This document shows, piece after piece, positions 16,886-25,951 of a DNA stretch of 64,000 bases. Under the pieces are notes generated by a model that was given only the letters and a program-made list of their open reading frames with translations, was not told the DNA's origin and made no database searches. The position numbers were made by a program, and so were the translations under genes. The DNA comes from Hyphomicrobiales bacterium (GTDB lineage Bacteria > Bacteroidota > Bacteroidia > Bacteroidales > JBGRPZ01). Each line of letters begins with the position of its first letter. The stretch's first letter is position 1. The stretch spans positions 5,209-69,208 of the forward strand of contig JBGRPZ010000003.1 of the NCBI GenBank assembly GCA_041725915.1, read 5' to 3'.

Positions 16886-18301
16886 TTATTTTATCGTATC
16901 AATTATTTTCTTGACTCGTTTTCGAAGCTCTTCGCCCTTATCCTTATCAATCATATATATGAAATCTGCAAATCCTTTTATTGAAGATAGCATGTTCTTT
17001 CCCTTCTTTCCTCTCCATACCTTATCTTCAATCCCGTCTTTTTCAATCTGAAATAATAAAGCTTTAAACTTCTTTACCTCTTTTCTATTGACAGAAGGCT
17101 TTTCATTTACAACAACACCTGTCACTTCCTGACGACGACCAGATCTTAGCACTTTCAGCTTATCAGGATGAACTCTAAAGTTCTCTTCCTTTACAATCTG
17201 GTTCACCATAGCTATTAATTTCCTAATAGAATCAGTACTATCATCAGTACTAGAGAAAGTTAAATCATCAGCATAACGAGTATATTCAAAGCCATAATGC
17301 TTAGCTATACCTATAAGACGAGCATCTAATTTTCTACAGATAATATTAGTGATAGCAGGACTTGAAGGAGCTCCTTGAGGAAGGTAACGTGCAGATTTAG
17401 AAACAAAATAACTCTGATCATCAAGTTCTACCTCTGCTACTTCTGGTTCAGTAGTCAATAAAGCCAGAATAATTGAAATTTGCTCACTATAACCAAAAGA
17501 CTTATACATTCCCTTAACCCTTTCATATGTCAAGGATGGGAAAAAGTTCTTTAAGTCCATATTAATAACAACCTTCTTATTAATATGAGGCATTGCATTA
17601 GTAAGAATACTTTTGTTTGGAATAAAGCCATGAGCAACTTCATTGGTTTGAAGCTTATACAGAAGGTTCTCGAGAAGCCAGTTTTGAACTTTCTTCAATC
17701 TGGGTTTTGGTGCAGAAATCATACGCTTACCACCTGTTTTCTTCTCCATAAAGAAACGGGTGTAATGACTTACAGTAGAAGTTTTTCTAGTGAAAGAAAG
17801 AAACCTCAATTCATTTACTGTAAGTTCCATCTTCTTGGCCATATCCTCAACATTACTAAATGCTGGAAGATTCAACTCTACTAATCTCTGATTGTCAGAT
17901 TCTGTATTGTTTAGACCTTTAGATACCTCTTCACCTAAGTATACGATATTCTTTTCTTGCTTCTCTTGCCAGGCTTTAGCTCTTTCTTCCTTTTCTTGCT
18001 TTCTTCTTGCTTTAGTCTCTTCTTGCTTTTTACGAGATTCCAACATTCTGTTCTTACGGATCTCATTAAGTAAGGTTTCACGATTAGAAAATTTACTTAA
18101 ATCTGCAGACAGCTTATAAATTTCTTTAGAAAGCTCAGCTTCTCTCTTTATCAATTGTGAAGAAACTGAAGGCATTTGTTCGTTTTCATCCCAGAAACCA
18201 AGGCGTTTCATTTCAGATAAAACATAGGAATCCTTAGAACTCTCTTTAATTTTGTCGTAAATCTCTTGTCTCTTATTATCGTCTACTTGTCCCATAATCA
18301 A
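16886..18301 (-). CDS. Retron-type reverse transcriptase with a ~170-aa Lys/Glu-rich N-terminal extension
   Basis: 471-aa ORF. The readable motifs are 'ISAPKPRLKKVQ' (RT1/2), 'NAMPH' (retron-characteristic NAxxH) and 'VINMDLKNFFPS' (motif A). They continue with 'LPQGAPSSPAITN' (motif B), 'YTRYADDLTFS' (YADD box) and 'EVTGVVVN' (retron-characteristic VTG). The N-terminal section (e.g. 'RKKQEETKARRKQEKEERAKAWQEKQEK') has no RT similarity. Confidence 0.9.
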   Translation of the reverse strand: MIMGQVDDNKRQEIYDKIKESSKDSYVLSEMKRLGFWDENEQMPSVSSQLIKREAELSKEIYKLSADLSKFSNRETLLNEIRKNRMLESRKKQEETKARRKQEKEERAKAWQEKQEKNIVYLGEEVSKGLNNTESDNQRLVELNLPAFSNVEDMAKKMELTVNELRFLSFTRKTSTVSHYTRFFMEKKTGGKRMISAPKPRLKKVQNWLLENLLYKLQTNEVAHGFIPNKSILTNAMPHINKKVVINMDLKNFFPSLTYERVKGMYKSFGYSEQISIILALLTTEPEVAEVELDDQSYFVSKSARYLPQGAPSSPAITNIICRKLDARLIGIAKHYGFEYTRYADDLTFSSTDDSTDSIRKLIAMVNQIVKEENFRVHPDKLKVLRSGRRQEVTGVVVNEKPSVNRKEVKKFKALLFQIEKDGIEDKVWRGKKGKNMLSSIKGFADFIYMIDKDKGEELRKRVKKIIDTIK

Positions 18302-18385: not shown

Positions 18386-18407
18386 GAATGGTGATCCACC
18401 AGTCAAT
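18386..18407 (-). repeat. Truncated third copy of the ncRNA 5' element (hairpin core + GTCAAT), 85-106 nt upstream of the RT start
   Basis: gaatggtgatccacca|gtcaat matches both full modules (gaatggYgatccaccattcggtttgcaaggtcaat), apart from a 13-nt internal deletion (ttcggtttgcaag). Confidence 0.5.
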
Positions 18408-18531
18408 TAATAAGGTTAATGCCTGCTTTAAAATTAAATTCTACAATTTTTTTAGCTATAAAACACCTTCAAATATCATAAATGATAAAAGGTAAATCTC
18501 AAGAAGAAATATTGAGATAAAAGAATAGAAA

Positions 18532-18755
18532 AAAGGTGACAATCAGGCCTTCGTCAATCTTAGGACTGAAGCGTTCAACTCAAATGATATAGCTATAGTA
18601 AATACATTTACTTTTGTGAAACAAATGTAGTACCGAAATGTGTTTACTATAGCTATATCATAAAGTAAAGAACGTGTCAGTGACGCGTATGAAATCTATT
18701 TACATGAATGGTGATCCACCATTCGGTTTGCAAGGTCAATCCCAATGCCACCTTT
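18532..18755 (-). ncRNA. Retron msr-msd-like structured ncRNA, copy A (RT-proximal)
   Basis: A terminal inverted repeat pairs 18532-18541 with 18746-18755 (10 bp). There is a 19-nt hairpin at 18706-18724 and a 17-nt hairpin at 18672-18688. A 78-nt long hairpin at 18584-18661 has 26-bp arms. The scaffold outside the long stem differs from copy B at only 4 of about 127 nt by hand alignment. Strand is inferred from gene context and the wobble pattern. Confidence 0.65.
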
Positions 18756-18938
18756 ATTTGAATACAAGATAATTTCTATGACAAAACAAACTTTTAATAT
18801 TAACACAAAACTTATGCAAACATCTAATAAATCAGATATTTACAATAACTTATAGTAAATATATAAAAGAGCATTTTATACTGTCAAGCAACAAAAAAGC
18901 ACCAACAATTATATACTTTAATGTTTACTTCATCAAAC

Positions 18939-19152
18939 AAACAACGAGACCTTCGTCAATCTTAGGACTGAGGCGTTCAACTCAAATGATACGGGTATGG
19001 TAGTTAAATTCGCTTTTGTAGCACAAATGCCGAACCGGAATTTGACTACCATACCCGTATCATAAAGTAAAGAACGTGTCAGTGACGCGTGAGAAATCTA
19101 TTTACATGAATGGCGATCCACCATTCGGTTTGCAAGGTCAATCTCGTTGTTT
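18939..19152 (-). ncRNA. Retron msr-msd-like structured ncRNA, copy B (RT-distal)
   Basis: A perfect 11-bp terminal inverted repeat pairs aaacaacgaga (18939-18949) with tctcgttgttt (19142-19152). Hairpins lie at 19108-19126 and 19074-19090. The 78-nt long hairpin at 18986-19063 has arms that differ from copy A at about 9 positions, each compensated on the opposite arm. Confidence 0.65.
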
Positions 19153-19161
19153 ATCTGAGTA

Positions 19162-19202: not shown

Positions 19203-20828
19203 TTATTTTTTACATAAATATTTCATTCTTAAAGCAAGGATATGTTCGCATGGTCCTCCATTAGAACCATTCTGGTACATATAAGAACAATTACACTTCA
19301 TTTGCTTTATTCTCAAGTCTTTATTCATATGAAGCACAGCATCTTTTCCGGACACATTAGCTTGAACTTTAATATAGTCATCTGATTCCTCAGCATTAAA
19401 ATTCTTGATAAAATTATTATCAAAAAAGTATGCCGCCTTTTTCTCTTGTTCAGAAGCAAATTTAAGTTGATCCATAGGGAGAGGATCTTTTGTCAGCTCC
19501 CTGATTCTATATACTTCTTTATTGATGTCATAAATAATTCTTCCAGACTCAGCATAATCAAAAAGTACGCTTTCAACAACATTTTTGTCCATATTTAGGC
19601 TAGAAGCAAGGGAATTGGAAGTATTGAGCCAATCGCCTTTCAACTTATTGTAAACCAGTTGTTGAGTATGAGCATCTGTTTCAACTTTATTGGCAAACAA
19701 GGTAAAGTTGCTATTACTAGACCAGTCATTAGCACTCCAGCCAGACAATCCAAGAGTAAAAGACATTTCACCAAGATCAGCAACATAGAATGAAGGAAGA
19801 CCAGAACCCATAAGTCTTACTTTTATAGACTTACATATTGGCAACAATCTTTCCAGTATAAGCAATCTTCTTCTACCCCAGATTTTTATTTCCTGAGGTT
19901 TATCTCCTTTATAGATAGATCTTGAACAATTTACAGTAATTCCCCAAGGAGCAAAAACAGCTTTTATAGGTTTACCAGGTTCAAGAATATATTTAATATA
20001 TCGAGGACTTTCTTTTTCCTTGTGTTTTTTCAGTACGAGTAAGAAGTTAGCCATATCCATTGGATGAAGCTCAAAGCTAACATCTGAAAGAGTCATAGCA
20101 GAACTTACCTGAAGAAAACCCCTTACCCATGATTCAGGAAGGTCAATTTTCATCTCTTTGAAATGATCTTCATTTGTTGTTTGCATCTCGAAACCAGAAG
20201 GATCAATCTTCAATTGAGTATTCTTATAATCTCTGATTTTCTGGAACTCATTATAAAGAGCAGCAGAATAATCAATATTAGTAGTACCATAAGCCATTTC
20301 AGATACATTATCGAAAACGTTATGACTACAACTCAATTTACCATAAGAAGATTCATCTTTACTGAAGCATTCAAAGAAGATTTCATCAGGATGAACAGTA
20401 ATAACAGGGTCAAGTACCAACCAAGATGTATAATCTCTATCATACAAGTAGCTATAGTATTTTGCTCTTGCATTATAAAAAGGGCCAATTACTTTTTGCT
20501 TTTCAGTACGAACCTCTTTAAGTTCTTTCGACAAAGGATCAATCTTTTCTCTAATTGCATCAGCCTTAGTCATATATTCAGCAATCCAAAGATCTTCTTG
20601 CTCAGCAACCCATTTTTTATACTCTTCACGATCTTTAGGAACAAATCTCATATCAGAGATCACCACATCATGAAGAGAAGATATTGCTTCACGAAAAGGG
20701 ATATGCATATTCAGATCACCCACGAAATAAGTAGGGTCTCTCAATACATCAGGAACAAAGTTCATCCCTGTTTGATTACCTTTAGACTGGACGGATGACG
20801 ATCCACTATATTTATGGTTGAAAATCAT
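19203..20828 (-). CDS. SWIM zinc-finger protein (large N-terminal unassigned region + C-terminal SWIM)
   Basis: 541-aa ORF. The C-terminal 'CNCSYMYQNGSNGGPCEHILALR' fits the SWIM CxCx(n)CxH signature. The start is 5 nt after the stop of the upstream WGR/HEAT gene. Confidence 0.8.
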   Translation of the reverse strand: MIFNHKYSGSSSVQSKGNQTGMNFVPDVLRDPTYFVGDLNMHIPFREAISSLHDVVISDMRFVPKDREEYKKWVAEQEDLWIAEYMTKADAIREKIDPLSKELKEVRTEKQKVIGPFYNARAKYYSYLYDRDYTSWLVLDPVITVHPDEIFFECFSKDESSYGKLSCSHNVFDNVSEMAYGTTNIDYSAALYNEFQKIRDYKNTQLKIDPSGFEMQTTNEDHFKEMKIDLPESWVRGFLQVSSAMTLSDVSFELHPMDMANFLLVLKKHKEKESPRYIKYILEPGKPIKAVFAPWGITVNCSRSIYKGDKPQEIKIWGRRRLLILERLLPICKSIKVRLMGSGLPSFYVADLGEMSFTLGLSGWSANDWSSNSNFTLFANKVETDAHTQQLVYNKLKGDWLNTSNSLASSLNMDKNVVESVLFDYAESGRIIYDINKEVYRIRELTKDPLPMDQLKFASEQEKKAAYFFDNNFIKNFNAEESDDYIKVQANVSGKDAVLHMNKDLRIKQMKCNCSYMYQNGSNGGPCEHILALRMKYLCKK

Positions 20829-20833
20829 GCTTC

Positions 20834-23800
20834 TTAAAATTGTTTGGTTTCAATCTTCTTTTCTTTCAATAAAACAGGCATATTCGGATAAGAATCCTGA
20901 ATACCAGAGAGTATTTCAATACATTTCGCTTTATCACCAATAGCCATAGTCAAGGAAATACGATTAAGGATATGAGTAACAGCCTCTGCTATCTTTTCAT
21001 TATGCATAGCCTGATTTTTCAAAAAAGAAAATACTCTATCCTTGACAACTCTGGCTTTATTGATATGACTTAAAACAGTATTGAAATAAGGAAGTAGATT
21101 TAATATCACCTCTTCATTGCCTGCCGCATAAGTTTCAATATAGTTACTTACAAAAAGCTGAAGATTCTTAGATGGATGTTGGCTTAACTTCAGTAGGTAG
21201 TCCATACCATCCACATCTTTAAAGAAACGAACCGCTAGGTTACGTCCAAAAGTTTGAACATCATCCCTAACACTATCACAGATATTAATGATAATATCAG
21301 AATTCCATTCATTCTCTGTATAATATTTATTGAAGAAATCAAAAGCGAATTTCCTGCTATCTTCCCATTTTGCATCAAGGATCTTCAAGGCTTCATCTTT
21401 ATAATACTTTACCTTGTCAACATTTGACTCAAAATAATTCCAGCATGTCTTACGCATAGTATAGACTTCAGAAGAAGCGAGTTTTGCAATGTCTATCATA
21501 TCCATTGTTTCAATGATATTATGATCATTGAACAACTTAGAACCTAAATCCTGAGCAACATTATATCTTGATTCTACAAGCTTAAACACATAATCATGTT
21601 TGATAAACTTCAGATAATAGCTCAATTCATCACTTAATAACTTCTGTATACTTTCATGAACACCTTCATACTTCTCCTTTTTCCATAAATAAGAAATAAG
21701 GCTTGCTGTCAAATTAGCACCATATTGATCATCAATAAGAGTAATTTTCTTGATGATTGGACTTATAGCATCTCTTGCATCAGCATACTTAGAAATACAT
21801 AAAGAAGCTACTAATGAACTTTTCTCTTGTAGCTTATCAATATTATATTGATCCAGAAGACTAATACCTAACATTCTGTTTGCTTCATTATCTGAATCAA
21901 GAAAAGCAAGCAAATACTTATTAGCAGATTCCTCAAAAGGTGTAGATGCTAACAAGATATGCTTAAGGAGAATCATGTTTGTATATGTGTTTGTACTGAT
22001 AAGATACTCCCTCAATTTATCAGATTGACCTCCTAATACAAGCTTACAATACTTCAGTAACATCTCACTAATTCGTATTACAGTCTCTGTATCCTCAGCA
22101 TTCAATTCATTCACAATAAATCCGCCAGCATCAGAAACCAAGTCTTCTTGCTGAGCAGTTGTAAACTCAGAAGAATGAGCCAAAGCCCAAAAGTGAGTCT
22201 TATTATATTTAGATATCAACAATCGGGTTAATAACCCAAAGTTAGATACAATGTCATCCTTACGCTGATTAGCCAAAAAGACACCCATATCACGAGCTTT
22301 CTCTGAAGCACTATTCATAAGACCTATAATAAGATCGAGATCTAATTCCTGATCTACTCTTGTAGCTAATACTGATAAGCCTATATTTACTGAAGAAGGA
22401 TTATCAGACTTCAACATAGCCAATAAGGCAGATTCATCAACAAGATCTTTCCATTTAGGATGATCATTAAACACCTTTGAAGCGAACTCAGCTACCTGCT
22501 CGATATGAGCCTCACATAATAATTTAATGATACTTTGAGGATCATTATTCCATAACTCCTGATTTAACTCCTCCCTTCCTGCAGGTGCTGCATCTTCTGG
22601 TTTAATTCCATTTTTATATATCCAGGCATCATAATATCCACTATACTGATACCTTAATTCATTGGCATATAATATTTGATTTAACAACCCTTCTTTAGGG
22701 AATGGACTTTTATAAACATCATACCTAATATATTCATCCTTATCATAATCATACCTACCACCTCTGACTTTCTTGATAGGTTGTACATCGATTTGTCTGA
22801 ATTGCAATAGATATTCTGTAGCATACTTTGTATATTCTGAAGAGCCTTGCTTCGCATAGCCCAAGATCTCTCTGGCTACTCTTCTCTTCATATAGTCCTT
22901 AGTTCTACTAGAAAAAGCAAACTTAGTATTATACTCTCTTCCTACTGCTTCCTTAACATCTCTATCAGAATAATAAGCTCCATCAACATAGACATAACCC
23001 TTATTATTATACCCTTCCTTACTAAGCTCCATTTCTCTACCTAGTATAGCATATAATTTATGATCAGAAACAAATTCAGATGCCTTAAAGATATATCTCA
23101 TATACCTGAACGAACCAGGCGCAAAAGGATATACTGCAATTTTATTATATAATACTTCTTTTATATAAGGAAGATGAAAAGAGAATAGAAACAGATCATA
23201 AATCCATTTCTTATTATTTATTGAATAATTATCGTAATAATCATCTAAGGCCTTGGATAGTTGATCTACATCATTACTTTTGAGAAAAGCAAACTCCTCA
23301 GGCGTATAATCAATTAATGATGGTAGATAAGGTTTTTTATCCTCAGCAATATGAAGAAGTGCCACTTGAGCAACACGCCTAACCATATCTTCTTTATCAT
23401 AATAATACAGTTGCTCGAGAGCAGGGACAGCTTTTACATTATTGATCTTTGCCAATGCATAAACACATGAATATCTAACAAAAACATCTTTATGCTTTGT
23501 TAGCTTTATAATATATGACAGCCCTTCTACAAGCTTTTCACGTCCTGCCCTCCATACAATACGAGAAAGTTTATACTCTTGATTTGGTCGATCACCCGAA
23601 GTTAGATTTTTCAGGATCCATGACTCATATTCAGGCTTAGTATCAGTTTTAATCTCTTCTACTTTTGCCTCACTATTTTCCTCATAACCCTTTTTCTTCT
23701 TTGAGTCAACGAGCTTATCAAATGCCTTAATAGCCTTTGCCTCCTCTACTGGTGTTGTTGTCTTTGTTCCTTCTTTAAGGTTTGCACCTCTTTTTCCATA

Positions 23801-23908
23801 GCGGAAATTTACAACATACCCTGATTCTACCCTACACAAATCTACTTCGTATACTTTGTCAGAACCCCCAGTTGTATTATATAAAGTAACCTGTTTTATT
23901 AATTCCAA
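20834..23908 (-). CDS. WGR-domain + HEAT/ARM-repeat protein (MolR/DUF4132-like architecture)
   Basis: 1024-aa ORF with a TTG start as given in the track. The N-terminal WGR-like domain is 'GGSDKVYEVDLCRVESGYVVNFRYGKRGANLKEGTKTTTPVEEAKAIKAFDKLVDSKKKKGYEE'. HEAT-like repeats follow ('DVFVRYSCVYALAKINNVKAVPALEQLYYYDKEDMVRRVAQVALLHI'), and the remainder is all-helical. Confidence 0.75.
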   Translation of the reverse strand: MELIKQVTLYNTTGGSDKVYEVDLCRVESGYVVNFRYGKRGANLKEGTKTTTPVEEAKAIKAFDKLVDSKKKKGYEENSEAKVEEIKTDTKPEYESWILKNLTSGDRPNQEYKLSRIVWRAGREKLVEGLSYIIKLTKHKDVFVRYSCVYALAKINNVKAVPALEQLYYYDKEDMVRRVAQVALLHIAEDKKPYLPSLIDYTPEEFAFLKSNDVDQLSKALDDYYDNYSINNKKWIYDLFLFSFHLPYIKEVLYNKIAVYPFAPGSFRYMRYIFKASEFVSDHKLYAILGREMELSKEGYNNKGYVYVDGAYYSDRDVKEAVGREYNTKFAFSSRTKDYMKRRVAREILGYAKQGSSEYTKYATEYLLQFRQIDVQPIKKVRGGRYDYDKDEYIRYDVYKSPFPKEGLLNQILYANELRYQYSGYYDAWIYKNGIKPEDAAPAGREELNQELWNNDPQSIIKLLCEAHIEQVAEFASKVFNDHPKWKDLVDESALLAMLKSDNPSSVNIGLSVLATRVDQELDLDLIIGLMNSASEKARDMGVFLANQRKDDIVSNFGLLTRLLISKYNKTHFWALAHSSEFTTAQQEDLVSDAGGFIVNELNAEDTETVIRISEMLLKYCKLVLGGQSDKLREYLISTNTYTNMILLKHILLASTPFEESANKYLLAFLDSDNEANRMLGISLLDQYNIDKLQEKSSLVASLCISKYADARDAISPIIKKITLIDDQYGANLTASLISYLWKKEKYEGVHESIQKLLSDELSYYLKFIKHDYVFKLVESRYNVAQDLGSKLFNDHNIIETMDMIDIAKLASSEVYTMRKTCWNYFESNVDKVKYYKDEALKILDAKWEDSRKFAFDFFNKYYTENEWNSDIIINICDSVRDDVQTFGRNLAVRFFKDVDGMDYLLKLSQHPSKNLQLFVSNYIETYAAGNEEVILNLLPYFNTVLSHINKARVVKDRVFSFLKNQAMHNEKIAEAVTHILNRISLTMAIGDKAKCIEILSGIQDSYPNMPVLLKEKKIETKQF

Positions 23909-24381: not shown

Positions 24382-25434
24382 ATGATTGATAAAATATCAT
24401 TGAAAAATTTTCAAATCTTTACTTCCTTTGAAACAAATGATTTAAAACCTATCAATATAATTATAGGGAAAAACGACACAGGTAAAACGGGTCTGCTTAA
24501 GCTGTTGTATACATACACAAAGTCGTTAGATGAATATGCCATCGAACAAAGAAATGCGAATTCGCCAAGATCTATAAAAGAAATCTTAAGCAAGAAAGTT
24601 ATTAACACCTTCTCCGGAATAGGCAAACTCGTAAATAAAGGCTCAAATGAAAAGCTGGAAGCCAATATTTATTACTCATCCGGTAACCAGCTTGAAGCTT
24701 CCTTCACTAAGACTACCGAAAAGCAAATCAATCAGTGTTCTATCCCTGAAAACAGAAGTTCACAAACAGAGAATGCTATATTCATCCCCGCTAAGGAAGT
24801 ACTTTCTATTATAAATACCATAAGGTTTGTACGAGAATCATTCAAGATATTAGACTTTGATGATACTTATTATGATCTTGCCAAATCACTATCAATACCT
24901 CCAATAAAAGAATCAAAATCAGAAATCAATCTGAAGAATATCTATTCAAAGCTTAGTGATATACTTAAAGGCGATATTGTTCCCAAAGAACAAAACCAGC
25001 TTATCAAGGAGTTTATATTCAGAAAAAATAAATCTGAATTTGACATGTCTATGACTGCTGAAGGAATTAAGAAACTTGGTGCTATTAAGCTTTTGTTAGA
25101 GAATGGCCAAATAAACAAAGACACTATCTTATTTATTGATGAGCCTGATGCTAATTTACATCCTGATGCTATACGTAAACTTTGTGAAATCCTATATCTA
25201 TTAAGTAAAGAAGGAATTCAAATATTCCTTGCTACACACAATTACTTTATGATCAACCAATTCTCTATTCTCGCCAGAAGAGAGGACTATTCTATTAATT
25301 GTATTGTACTCACTAAAGATAACAACTCAATATCTAATACTACTTCTGATCTAAAATATGCACAACCAGACAATTCAATTATTAATGAGGCTCTGGATAT
25401 GTTAGATGATGAAATGGATTTAGATATTGAATAA
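24382..25434 (+). CDS. ABC-type AAA ATPase (AAA_15/AAA_21-like, no coiled-coil insert)
   Basis: 350-aa ORF. 'ISLKNFQIFTSFETNDLKPINIIIGKNDTGKTGLLKLLY' carries Walker A, 'ILFIDEPDANLHPDAIRKL' carries Walker B/D-loop, and 'FLATHNYFM' carries the H-loop. Confidence 0.8.
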   Translation: MIDKISLKNFQIFTSFETNDLKPINIIIGKNDTGKTGLLKLLYTYTKSLDEYAIEQRNANSPRSIKEILSKKVINTFSGIGKLVNKGSNEKLEANIYYSSGNQLEASFTKTTEKQINQCSIPENRSSQTENAIFIPAKEVLSIINTIRFVRESFKILDFDDTYYDLAKSLSIPPIKESKSEINLKNIYSKLSDILKGDIVPKEQNQLIKEFIFRKNKSEFDMSMTAEGIKKLGAIKLLLENGQINKDTILFIDEPDANLHPDAIRKLCEILYLLSKEGIQIFLATHNYFMINQFSILARREDYSINCIVLTKDNNSISNTTSDLKYAQPDNSIINEALDMLDDEMDLDIE

Positions 25435-25951
25435 TATGAATACAATTATAGAAAGTGGTATTACATTAAACTTACCAGAAGACAGAAGTTTTCGCTTTGA
25501 AAATTGCAAAAGTTATAAAGAAATTAACGGTTTTTCTTTCAAAGAAATGGATGCCTGTTGGTATGATAATAAAAAGCAAACATTATACTTAGTAGAATTG
25601 AAGGATTATAGTCAAGTACCTAATACAAGAGAAAAAAGCAGAGATCTCATTACAAACTTAGTAAAGAAATCTACCGATAGCCTGCAAATGGTTCTTGCTA
25701 TGCTGCTTGATACTGAACATGGAAACAAGTTTCAAGCTGAAATTGGATGGGATTTACCTGTAGGCACTTCGCTGAAATTCATCTCTATAATCAAGACAGA
25801 ATCATATATAAAAAAGTATTTTCAGTCTTTAAATCAAGGATACAAAACAAAATTCTCCCCTTTTAAAAAGTTGTATAATCCATTTATTGATATCAAAGCC
25901 TTTGTGATCAACTATGATAAAGCGAAAGAAAAGTTTGAATGGGTAAAATAG
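25427..25951 (+). CDS. Small hypothetical protein, possible PD-(D/E)xK-fold nuclease, translationally coupled to the ATPase
   Basis: 174-aa ORF overlapping the ATPase stop by 8 nt. 'FKEMDACWYDNKKQTLYLVELKDY' gives a D-x16-E-x-K arrangement compatible with a restriction-endonuclease-like core. The motif match is weak. Confidence 0.4.
   Translation: MNNMNTIIESGITLNLPEDRSFRFENCKSYKEINGFSFKEMDACWYDNKKQTLYLVELKDYSQVPNTREKSRDLITNLVKKSTDSLQMVLAMLLDTEHGNKFQAEIGWDLPVGTSLKFISIIKTESYIKKYFQSLNQGYKTKFSPFKKLYNPFIDIKAFVINYDKAKEKFEWVK

Follow-up and report, generated by a model that had tools for sequence, protein, structure and literature searches.

The locus analyzed here raises the question of how a retron might act when neither of its two accessory proteins carries a recognizable toxic enzyme. 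It is located within a window of 64,000 nt, the whole stretch of DNA that was analyzed, and all positions refer to this window. The literature searched contained no paper on how the accessory proteins of this retron type work and no experiment on any of them, and both toxicity and anti-phage function of the type are putative.

Genomic locus and classification

The locus comprises, in this order and entirely on the minus strand, the gene of a WGR/HEAT protein (1024 aa, 20834..23908), the gene of a SWIM protein (541 aa, 19203..20828), two retron ncRNAs and, downstream of the accessory genes, the gene of a reverse transcriptase (RT; 471 aa, 16886..18301). Both accessory open reading frames are real and had been delimited exactly in the initial annotation. 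All three proteins are matched end to end by PADLOC models of the type XIII retron. The WGR/HEAT protein matches WGR_XIII over residues 1-1021 (E=3.5e-273), and the SWIM protein matches SWIM_XIII over its full length (E=4.4e-215; residues 1-536 against profile positions 1-502 of 509). For the RT, in which Pfam also identifies RVT_1, RT_XIII is the best among 41 PADLOC RT models (E=7.1e-183; RT clade 10). The RT has an N-terminal extension of ~170 aa, and its active-site and retron motifs are intact (NAMPH235, LPQG307, YADD343 and VTG393).

The sequence features by which type XIII is recognized are found, namely a clade 10 RT, a full-length SWIM protein, a WGR/HEAT-ARM gene upstream of the SWIM gene and an adjacent structured ncRNA with a1/a2 inverted repeats and an msd hairpin. 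The locus is an already classified type XIII retron (Mx162/Mx65 class) and not a new system, an identity that had been overlooked initially. Retron-Mxa1 (Mx162), Mxa2 (Mx65), Sau1 (Sa163) and Nex2 (Ne144) have in common with it the RT clade, the SWIM protein in its full length, the WGR plus HEAT/ARM protein and a structured a1/a2 ncRNA. The present locus differs from these in having its ncRNA in two tandem copies, whose msd hairpins are not alike, and in its host, which probably belongs to the Bacteroidota. Among 59 loci in which the three genes are all present, most have this gene order. Within the scheme of Mestre 2020, the SWIM protein is the 'primary' associated protein of type XIII (cluster 114) and the WGR/HEAT protein is of the cluster 216 type. 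The SWIM protein has an exact counterpart (100% identity) among the MAG proteins of NCBI.

Another candidate defence system, HEC-02 (PADLOC; genes 24382-25951), adjoins the locus. Its genes were considered as the missing effector and rejected, as they are not co-conserved in related loci, with the exception of one weak AAA match.

The first ncRNA copy (msr-msd, 18935..19155, minus strand) has the a1/a2 repeats AAACAACGAGA / TCTCGTTGTTT and a minimum free energy of -85.6 kcal/mol (z=-8.7). The second copy (18531..18756, minus strand; fold z=-6.3) has the same scaffold, with 78/81 and 39/41 identical positions, while identity in the msd hairpin is 47/70 and the a1/a2 repeats differ. A homologous ncRNA is present in 48 of 80 related loci, and in an alignment of 41 ncRNA sequences, compensatory changes are found in 33 of 44 consensus pairs. 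Rfam contains no family for this ncRNA and returned spurious miRNA-hairpin matches only. The tandem arrangement with swapped msd hairpins suggests that several msDNAs can arm one set of RT and effector.

Search for an enzyme in the accessory proteins

Neither accessory protein encodes a recognizable enzyme. In the two proteins, Pfam identifies just WGR (residues 10-81), HEAT_2 (residues 128-184) and a sub-threshold SWIM domain (residues 507-533), and PADLOC solely WGR_XIII, HEAT-ARM_XIII and SWIM_XIII; NCBIfam has no match for either. Sequence search of the PDB matches the WGR protein to designed alphaRep HEAT repeats only, and sequence and profile searches of the PDB detect no homology of the SWIM protein to solved structures. 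A Walker A motif is absent from both proteins according to a motif scan, and the maximum 19-residue hydropathy is 1.0-1.2, so that a membrane segment is not expected. None of the known retron effector classes (NDT, ATPase with HNH or TOPRIM, 2TM, protease, TIR, HEPN, PRTase) was found in the accessory proteins with Pfam, PADLOC or NCBIfam. Similarly, an enzymatic Pfam domain is carried by 0 of the best 120 homologues of either protein.

Regular expressions for PD-(D/E)xK, HNH, GIY-YIG, MBL, HD, Walker A, serine protease and kinase motifs yielded loose, non-specific matches or none. A HEPN-like pair, R46-x6-H53 in the N-terminal helix of the SWIM protein, does not vary among close homologues; as only 35 of the 105 diverse members have H53, however, the candidate was discarded.

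The initial annotation had noted the lack of a nuclease, NADase, protease, kinase, P-loop or membrane segment in either protein. This is upheld by Pfam, PADLOC, NCBIfam, the PDB sequence search, the motif scans and the fold searches described below. Since profile and structure searches revealed no standard enzymatic domain in either protein, the one outcome named at the time as speaking against this statement did not occur. The accompanying premise that known retrons always have an identifiable enzymatic effector was too strong: Mestre 2020 includes types with DNA-binding partners only, such as type X with an IHF-like protein.

Predicted fold of the SWIM protein

The AlphaFold model of the SWIM protein has a pLDDT of 76; the core is mostly at 77-95 per block of 10 residues, with dips to 66-73 at residues 181-190, 221-240 and 271-280. 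Residues ~30-365 (19734..20741, minus strand) are predicted to form a two-domain DNA clamp of the PCNA type. In Foldseek searches against the PDB, 483 matches were obtained at E<=1e-3, and the best 50 matches listed are all PCNA, 9-1-1 or beta clamps (best E=1.6e-9), with TM(target) values of 0.61-0.77 over ~245 columns for clamps. In BFVD, the matches listed are viral PCNA/DnaN or proteins without a name, with a best E of 6.4e-10. Strands and helices of the model follow the succession beta-alpha-beta3-beta-alpha-beta3 twice, as in clamps. A helical hairpin is inserted in clamp domain I (residues 61-135, 20424-20648, minus strand); it is variable and missing in short family members, which align from residue ~137 on.

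The clamp is followed by a winged-helix-like domain (residues ~373-447, 19488..19712, minus strand), modeled as three helices and a beta hairpin, in which G429, D434 and R443 are near-invariant. A DprA-like winged helix has been described for the family (Mestre 2020). The C-terminal SWIM zinc finger (19209..19409, minus strand) has the motif C512-x-C514-x12-C527-x-H529; its ligands are kept in 87-96 of 105 diverse representatives, and the Pfam match is weak (E=0.033). At the level of fold, as seen in one predicted monomer, the SWIM protein is shown to consist of a two-domain clamp resembling PCNA, then a winged helix and lastly a SWIM finger that is intact. An effector fold hidden in the unassigned part of the protein, as had been supposed initially, is indeed predicted, but it is not novel, being the well-known PCNA/sliding-clamp fold.

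The likeness to PCNA, 9-1-1, DnaN and viral PCNAs consists in the two-domain fold and in basic residues that open the presumed channel-facing helices; an invariant W317-G-R-R-R321 opens one helix of the clamp region. Unlike sliding clamps, the SWIM protein has the helical hairpin inserted in domain I, and the clamp module of type XIII is fused to a winged helix and SWIM, WGR or BRCT domain, with no clamp-loader ATPase nearby. An AAA+ clamp-loader gene is not conserved across 80 neighborhoods. Sequence-level kinship to clamps was not detected by profile against PDB sequences or with Pfam PCNA/DnaN, and hhalign of the SWIM protein with a human PCNA sequence gave a probability of 1.6%. The clamp-fold prediction points to DNA binding rather than catalysis.

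This prediction bears on a rival explanation that had been implied earlier, according to which the SWIM protein would be an enzymatic toxin and acidic residues of clamp domain I would bind a divalent metal and cut DNA or RNA. The acidic cluster (20142..20411, minus strand; the 'DEDE' motif of Mestre 2020) comprises D140, D148, E153, D158, E159, D186, E225 and D229, which are located on clamp-domain strands in the model. Among the 105 representatives, E153 is kept in 102, D158 in 98, D140 in 92, D186 in 87, E225 in 85 and D148 in 83 (E in a further 9), and T182, T183, N184 and K227 are conserved alongside. A surface that does no more than bind DNA would not usually carry such a near-invariant cluster (E153, D158, D140, D186, E225), and the residues could represent a metal site. 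Because of the DEDE motif, Mestre 2020 filed the protein under 'putative nucleases', by analogy with SWIM-bearing Mutator/IS256-type DDE transposases, with which it has in common a C-terminal SWIM finger and an acidic motif upstream; moreover, the retron effectors characterized to date are mostly enzymes in the literature consulted. The predicted fold, in contrast, is that of a sliding clamp and not RNase H-like, which does not bear out the transposase-like reading. No transposase match was found by profile or structure, and no transposase, integrase or nuclease is among the best 50 matches listed from either PDB or BFVD. An RNase H-like catalytic fold with an acidic triad was rejected on the same matches, the acidic motif itself being present. 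Nuclease profiles of Pfam, PADLOC and NCBIfam have no match, and the order of strands and helices suggests that the D158-E159-S160 loop corresponds to the 'center loop' on the front face of PCNA, a partner-binding site. A cryptic nuclease is considered rather unlikely on this evidence.

The WGR/HEAT protein

The AF2 model of the WGR/HEAT protein (pLDDT 87) is an all-alpha solenoid preceded by the WGR domain (residues 1-81, 23666..23908, minus strand; Pfam PF05406, 34.4 bits at a cut-off of 22). The WGR domain is modeled as a beta-rich fold with a helix, and K18, Y20, N34, F35, R36 and G38 are invariant. Foldseek retrieves HEAT solenoids only (CAND1, SF3B1, karyopherin, mTOR), and at the level of the predicted fold the protein is shown as a WGR domain on a long, generic HEAT solenoid.

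The most widely conserved segment of the solenoid, judged by invariant columns, spans residues ~296-460 (22529..23023, minus strand). Located within it are a basic helix (T336, R343, R346), a small insert of beta structure and the motifs N416-S-x-R419 and R445-E-E. The segment belongs to the regions to which the other HEAT-ARM_XIII models match, two of these four models matching the protein only within residues 322-553, and a divergent 1124-aa partner of a BRCT-fused variant described below aligns with it only in residues ~296-460 (hhalign 96%).

Relatives, variants and linkage to retrons

Matches to type XIII are found in >587 species, and the type is the third most abundant retron group according to a 2026 survey. 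Median identity falls from 53% in the SWIM protein and 49% in the RT to 30% in the HEAT protein, which fits a conserved DNA-facing module combined with a diversifying sensor. A fourth conserved gene was not found in 80 loci. The proposal that the WGR and SWIM gene pair is a cassette reused outside retrons was not supported: an RT is present in 47 of 52 related loci with adequate flanks, and four of the five loci lacking it retain the retron ncRNA beside the SWIM gene. In some cyanobacteria, SWIM gene and ncRNA persist and no RT is located within 10 kb.

A candidate for such a non-retron pair is the E. coli yeh cluster, where WGR- and SWIM-domain genes share one neighborhood (yehF/yehH, WGR; yehI, DUF4132; yehL, MoxR; yehP, VWA; yehQ, SWIM). 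In contrast to type XIII, the SWIM motif of YehQ is N-terminal and the cluster has no RT, and its MoxR and VWA genes do not recur in the 80 retron loci. YehQ was rejected as a homologue, as its hhalign alignment with the SWIM protein covers 32 columns comprising the CxC..CxH SWIM motif only. YehI, the yeh protein that was compared with the WGR/HEAT protein, was rejected as well, since nothing aligned in hhalign.

Relatives of the SWIM protein include variants with an inserted WGR or a C-terminal BRCT domain, sometimes with SWIM as well. The two divergent variants (WGR- or BRCT-fused) whose gene context was looked up both adjoin an RT. Upstream of the WGR-fused variant, a HEAT homologue is encoded (hhalign 98.7%) that has no detectable WGR domain. 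The WGR domain moves between clamp and HEAT proteins, which suggests that the two proteins act together. The same kinds of DNA-end-reading modules that are combined across the type XIII family occur in PARP1-type DNA-break sensors (zinc finger, BRCT and WGR). In contrast to PARP1, type XIII has no ADP-ribosyltransferase domain, and the modules are split over two proteins, on a clamp fold and a HEAT solenoid.

Proposed mode of action

The reading favored here, tentatively and at slightly less than an even chance, is that the type XIII accessory proteins are a DNA-structure-reading complex on the RT-msDNA with a non-catalytic output. Both proteins would assemble on the RT-msDNA as a single complex, in which the long msd duplex would be held by the inner-face helices of the clamp (including W317-G-R-R-R321), the winged helix and the SWIM finger. 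A DNA end or junction would be read by the WGR domain (BRCT in relatives), and the fast-evolving HEAT solenoid would serve as scaffold or sensor. Perturbation of the msDNA by a phage would free the clamp/WGR module, which would then attach to ends or junctions of DNA under replication; by this occupancy, and not by cutting or metabolite depletion, it would block replication or repair. This non-catalytic output is the weakest step of the model. Among the options raised in the initial annotation, sequestration or occlusion is favored over enzymatic toxicity by the predicted clamp fold. In the retron census, clade 10 RT and ncRNA yield abundant RT-DNA in E. coli without the accessory genes, so that the accessory proteins appear dispensable for synthesis and would act downstream of it.

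Alternatively, the PCNA-like module could mimic the beta clamp of the host or a junction at which clamps are loaded, and sequester or recruit host replication and repair proteins, the 'effector' being a host enzyme or its loss. The clamp fold predicted in the PDB and BFVD searches would be compatible with such mimicry, BRCT and WGR domains are typical of repair-factor hubs, and no effector is encoded in cis in the 80 loci. Between Bacteroidota and Cyanobacteria, Gammaproteobacteria or Planctomycetota, the SWIM protein shows a very high identity of 51-61%, a degree of conservation that suggests that its target is conserved universally. However, no clamp-binding motif or partner was identified, a conserved linkage to a host gene is absent from the 80 loci and the data fit direct DNA binding equally well; recruitment of host factors is regarded as improbable. 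Still less credit is given to a non-toxic role, in which the accessory proteins would aid the assembly, stability or processive synthesis of the type XIII msDNA, which is unusually long, or in which the system would serve a domesticated housekeeping function instead of abortive infection: the clamp is the classic fold of polymerase processivity factors, the moderate correlation of type XIII with the 16S tree suggests vertical inheritance (Mestre 2020) and the cyanobacterial SWIM genes persist as described, but clade 10 RT and ncRNA rank, by themselves, with the top producers of RT-DNA in the census, which disfavors a clamp acting as processivity factor of the RT, HEC-02 adjoins the locus and the HEAT partner evolves fast, like defence sensors.

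The DNA-structure-reading complex can be extended to a more general and more doubtful proposal, which is possible at best: a PCNA-like clamp with interchangeable DNA-end readers (SWIM, WGR, BRCT) may represent a non-enzymatic immune effector or sensor that is held on the msDNA hairpin and, once released, locks onto replication or repair junctions.

Significance for type XIII retrons

Type XIII is among the commonest and most widespread retron types and includes the historic Myxococcus retrons. New in this analysis is the predicted clamp fold of the SWIM protein, as opposed to the earlier guess of a DEDE transposase-like nuclease. If the SWIM protein is a clamp-fold binder with PARP-like readers, assays of DNA binding, occupancy and complex structure would gain priority over nuclease assays alone. 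Type XIII would be a candidate case of retron action that requires no classical toxin enzyme. Under the more general proposal, the active part of a bacterial defence system would be a sliding-clamp fold instead of an enzyme or a pore. A function would thereby be explained for the first retrons that were discovered, Mx162 and Mx65.

Locus organization and retron type

The locus is encoded on the minus strand and comprises the genes of a WGR/HEAT protein (20834-23908, 1024 aa), a SWIM protein (19203-20828, 541 aa), which starts five bases past the WGR/HEAT gene, and, after a non-coding gap of 900 nt, a reverse transcriptase (RT; 16886-18301, 471 aa; Pfam RVT_1). Pfam assigned only WGR (residues 10-81) and HEAT_2 (128-184) to the WGR/HEAT protein and solely a SWIM finger (residues 507-533, below threshold) to the SWIM protein. 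The initial annotation is thus correct in its coordinates and its descriptions of both proteins, which agree with the ORF calls and Pfam domains. The PADLOC type XIII retron models cover all three proteins end to end (WGR_XIII, 3.5e-273; SWIM_XIII, 4.4e-215; RT_XIII, 7.1e-183), and the catalytic and retron-specific motifs of the RT are intact (NAMPH235, LPQG307, YADD343, VTG393). Judged from these sequence matches, the locus is almost certainly a type XIII retron.

Type XIII retrons are an already known class, to which this locus adds one more member. The class includes the first retrons discovered, Mx162, Mx65, Sa163 and Ne144 (Mestre et al. 2020). Its accessory pair was described there as a cluster-114 protein ('DEDE motif, winged helix and C-terminal SWIM CxCx12CxH') and a 'WGR-like + HEAT/ARM' protein; the type was placed under 'putative nucleases', and a Mutator/IS256-like transposase ancestry was suggested.

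The RT carries an N-terminal extension of ~170 residues (1-170) with a Lys/Glu-rich stretch, EETKARRKQEKEERAKAWQEKQEK, of coiled-coil appearance, which could pair with a helical hairpin of the SWIM protein (residues 61-135). On the opposite strand inside the SWIM gene, an isoleucine- and phenylalanine-rich, low-complexity ORF of 211 aa (20163-20798, plus strand) is most likely a shadow ORF and not a gene. The contig may be mis-binned: identical proteins (P0001/P0121) are labelled by NCBI as from a 'Hyphomicrobiales bacterium' MAG, whereas the G+C content of the window is ~33% and all three retron proteins have their nearest relatives in Bacteroidota (61% identity, Bacteroidales MAG).

Divergently from the retron, the plus strand encodes a candidate defence system of PADLOC, HEC-02, consisting of HEC-02A, an AAA_21/AbiEii-like ATPase (24382-25434, E=1.4e-96), and HEC-02B (25427-25951, E=1e-28). 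In related loci, this pair is not conserved alongside the retron, so HEC-02 is probably an independent neighbour within a defence island.

Tandem ncRNAs

Two complete retron ncRNAs are encoded in tandem on the minus strand, in the gap separating the SWIM gene from the RT, at ~18935-19155 and ~18531-18756 (fold z = -8.7 and -6.3 vs shuffled controls, respectively). Homologues of this ncRNA occur in 48 of 80 related loci, and an alignment of 41 sequences contains compensatory changes in 33 of 44 consensus pairs; Rfam holds no family for it. The msr and 3' scaffolds of the two copies (18531-19155) are near-identical (78/81 and 39/41), while the copies diverge in the msd hairpin (47/70, with compensatory changes) and in the a1/a2 repeats, so that one RT may produce two distinct msDNAs. 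Just upstream of the RT, near 18386-18412, lies the degenerate remnant of a third msr hairpin, ttgactggtggatcaccattc. Multi-copy arrays were also found with nhmmer in related loci of other genomes (L057:11733-12582, L065:11807-12259, L003, L033, L049 and L023). An Acidobacteria MAG has four copies, and several Bacteroidota and Cyanobacteria have two. In the arrays of L065 and L057, the main difference between copies again lies in the msd stem.

Search for a catalytic domain

No enzyme was found in either accessory protein by Pfam, NCBIfam, PDB sequence, motif or Foldseek searches. NCBIfam yielded nothing for either protein, the SWIM protein matched no PDB sequence as a single sequence or as a profile, and the WGR/HEAT protein matched designed HEAT repeats only. 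A motif and segment scan detected neither a Walker A motif nor a membrane-like segment, and the best 120 homologues of each protein contain no Pfam domain besides SWIM, WGR and HEAT. The AlphaFold model of the WGR/HEAT protein (pLDDT 87) starts with the WGR domain and continues as an all-alpha solenoid that contains a small beta insert. In Foldseek searches against the PDB, it matched HEAT solenoids of a generic kind only (CAND1, SF3B1, karyopherins, mTOR, condensin subunits), with low TM-scores. The initial annotation had seen no catalytic effector in the pair and had named a standard enzyme uncovered by profile or structure search as its refutation; such searches of both proteins revealed no such domain, and the observation survives.

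Predicted sliding-clamp fold of the SWIM protein

The SWIM protein very probably takes a sliding-clamp fold, as judged from its AlphaFold model (pLDDT 76 overall; for residues 140-360, mostly 77-95 in blocks of ten residues). In the PDB, the top 50 Foldseek matches are all sliding clamps, namely PCNA, 9-1-1 and beta clamp (best E-value 1.6e-9; target-normalised TM 0.61-0.77 over ~245 columns), and 483 matches reach E <= 1e-3. The independent BFVD library returned viral PCNAs, phage DnaN clamps and some unnamed proteins (best 6.4e-10). The strand and helix order is compatible with two clamp domains, modelled at residues ~30-60 plus 137-245 and at 250-362 (beta-alpha-beta3-beta-alpha-beta3). Domain I is interrupted by the helical hairpin, which shorter family members lack while still matching SWIM_XIII; alignments spanning it give the highest TM values (0.70-0.77). 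A predicted winged helix (residues ~373-447; three helices and a hairpin) and the SWIM finger with its conserved ligands C512, C514, C527 and H529 follow. The ~430 unassigned residues thus appear to hide a fold, as had been proposed, albeit a known one and not a novel effector fold. The fold is shared with sliding clamps but the sequence is not: neither a profile search of PDB sequences nor hhalign against human PCNA found a relationship, so the clamp is a fold assignment and not a family membership. The transposase-derived reading is not supported, since no transposase, integrase or RNase H-fold protein is among the top 50 matches listed for either library.

Among 105 diverse family representatives, conservation within the protein is highest in the clamp core. 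Near-invariant residues comprise the zinc ligands of the SWIM finger and the basic or aromatic residues R199, W234, W317-G318-R319-R320-R321, W364, W369 and R443. The WGRRR motif (317-321) would open a helix equivalent to the DNA-channel-facing helix of PCNA, which would suit DNA binding, and the D158-E159-S160 loop would match the 'centre loop' on the front face of PCNA, where partners bind; both proposed mappings combine the model's strand and helix order with textbook PCNA anatomy. An acidic cluster is also retained (E153 in 102/105, D158 in 98, D140 in 92, D186 in 87, E225 in 85, and D148 in 83 plus nine with E). Mainly because of this cluster, a cryptic metal-dependent activity is kept as a candidate; a nuclease built on it is unlikely, and the profile and structure searches returned no enzyme.

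Conservation and domain shuffling of the accessory pair

One genome per species was scanned, which gave at least 587 matching stretches. The best 80 loci, which were analysed, belong to Bacteroidota, Cyanobacteria, Gammaproteobacteria, Campylobacterota, Acidobacteriota and Planctomycetota. All three genes are present in 59 of them, in the order WGR/HEAT, SWIM, ncRNA, RT or ncRNA, RT, WGR/HEAT, SWIM. Compared with the window proteins, the clamp-SWIM protein has a median identity of 53%, the RT of 49% and the HEAT protein of 30%. When 1245 neighbouring ORFs from these loci were clustered, no conserved fourth gene emerged; a response regulator present in nine loci formed the largest cluster and is most likely an ordinary host gene.

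An RT is present in 47 of the 52 loci with adequate flanks, and in four of the five others the ncRNA directly follows the SWIM gene. In six cyanobacteria (L004, L005, L017, L023, L034, L038), the ncRNA lies within ~60 nt of the SWIM stop codon even though the RT lies at a distance of 2-4 kb or is missing within 10 kb, which suggests that SWIM gene and ncRNA form a tighter unit there or that the RT works in trans. L038 keeps the ncRNA with both WGR/HEAT and RT genes absent within 10 kb. Calothrix parasitica (L023, 2010-9709) encodes two WGR/HEAT paralogues and two ncRNAs, one behind the first HEAT gene and the other behind the SWIM gene; it lacks an RT within 10 kb. A separate WGR-domain protein of ~475 aa is found near the retron in four cyanobacterial loci (L072 and three others) and a VWA-like protein in three (L072: 19124-20548 and 15648-17486 for these extra WGR and VWA-like neighbours); neither is part of the conserved core.

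The initial annotation had considered a WGR+SWIM cassette reused outside retrons. E. coli K-12 indeed has a gene group with WGR (yehF, yehH), DUF4132 (yehI), MoxR (yehL), VWA (yehP) and SWIM (yehQ) genes, but the alignment of YehQ with the SWIM protein family is confined to the 32-residue SWIM motif, and YehI shows no alignment with the WGR/HEAT protein, so YehQ and YehI were rejected as non-retron homologues. Given this and the frequency of the RT in well-flanked loci, the notion of reuse is not supported, and the pairing in this protein family is retron-specific.

In some clamp-protein relatives (P0295 and about 15 clusters), a WGR domain is inserted ahead of the SWIM finger, and a large group has a C-terminal BRCT domain, at times alongside SWIM. 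Both fused variants with examined gene context are retron-linked: L091 encodes a 961-aa protein, clamp+WGR+SWIM and RT, and L093 a 1124-aa protein, clamp+BRCT and RT, in these orders. The HEAT body of the window protein has a homologue in the 961-aa protein (hhalign 98.7%, query residues 245-983), which gives no Pfam hit to WGR and whose alignment begins only at query residue 245. With WGR instead in the clamp partner, the domain has moved from one accessory protein to the other. The 1124-aa protein shares solely a central segment with the HEAT protein (residues 345-528, hhalign 96%). WGR, BRCT and zinc fingers are classic readers of DNA breaks and DNA ends in PARP1, ligases and RFC1. The exchange of such modules on a clamp scaffold speaks for a pair that reads DNA structure and acts as one complex.

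Proposed mode of action

That the two accessory proteins act as a DNA-reading complex is the favoured reading and reasonably probable. In such a complex, the clamp, winged helix and SWIM finger would hold the RT-msDNA at the msd duplex, WGR (BRCT in relatives) would bind a DNA end or junction, and the rapidly evolving HEAT solenoid would serve as scaffold or sensor. The output would be occupancy of DNA ends or junctions and not catalysis; this non-enzymatic output is proposed tentatively, at somewhat less than even chances. A role of the clamp as a needed RT processivity factor is disfavoured: in a retron census, the clade 10 (type XIII) RT and ncRNA alone ranked with the top RT-DNA producers in E. 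coli, so the clamp is dispensable for msDNA synthesis and must act downstream of it. Replisome mimicry or recruitment of a host factor by the pair is improbable, and a non-toxic or housekeeping role slightly more so.

The literature searched contains no experiments on type XIII accessory proteins and no mention of a clamp fold for them. For this class, the observation that the pair lacks a recognisable effector is correct. New here are the assignment of a probable clamp fold, the interchange of WGR, BRCT and SWIM domains, the lack of a fourth gene hidden in the neighbourhood, and the rejection of two analogies, those with transposases and with a yeh cassette.
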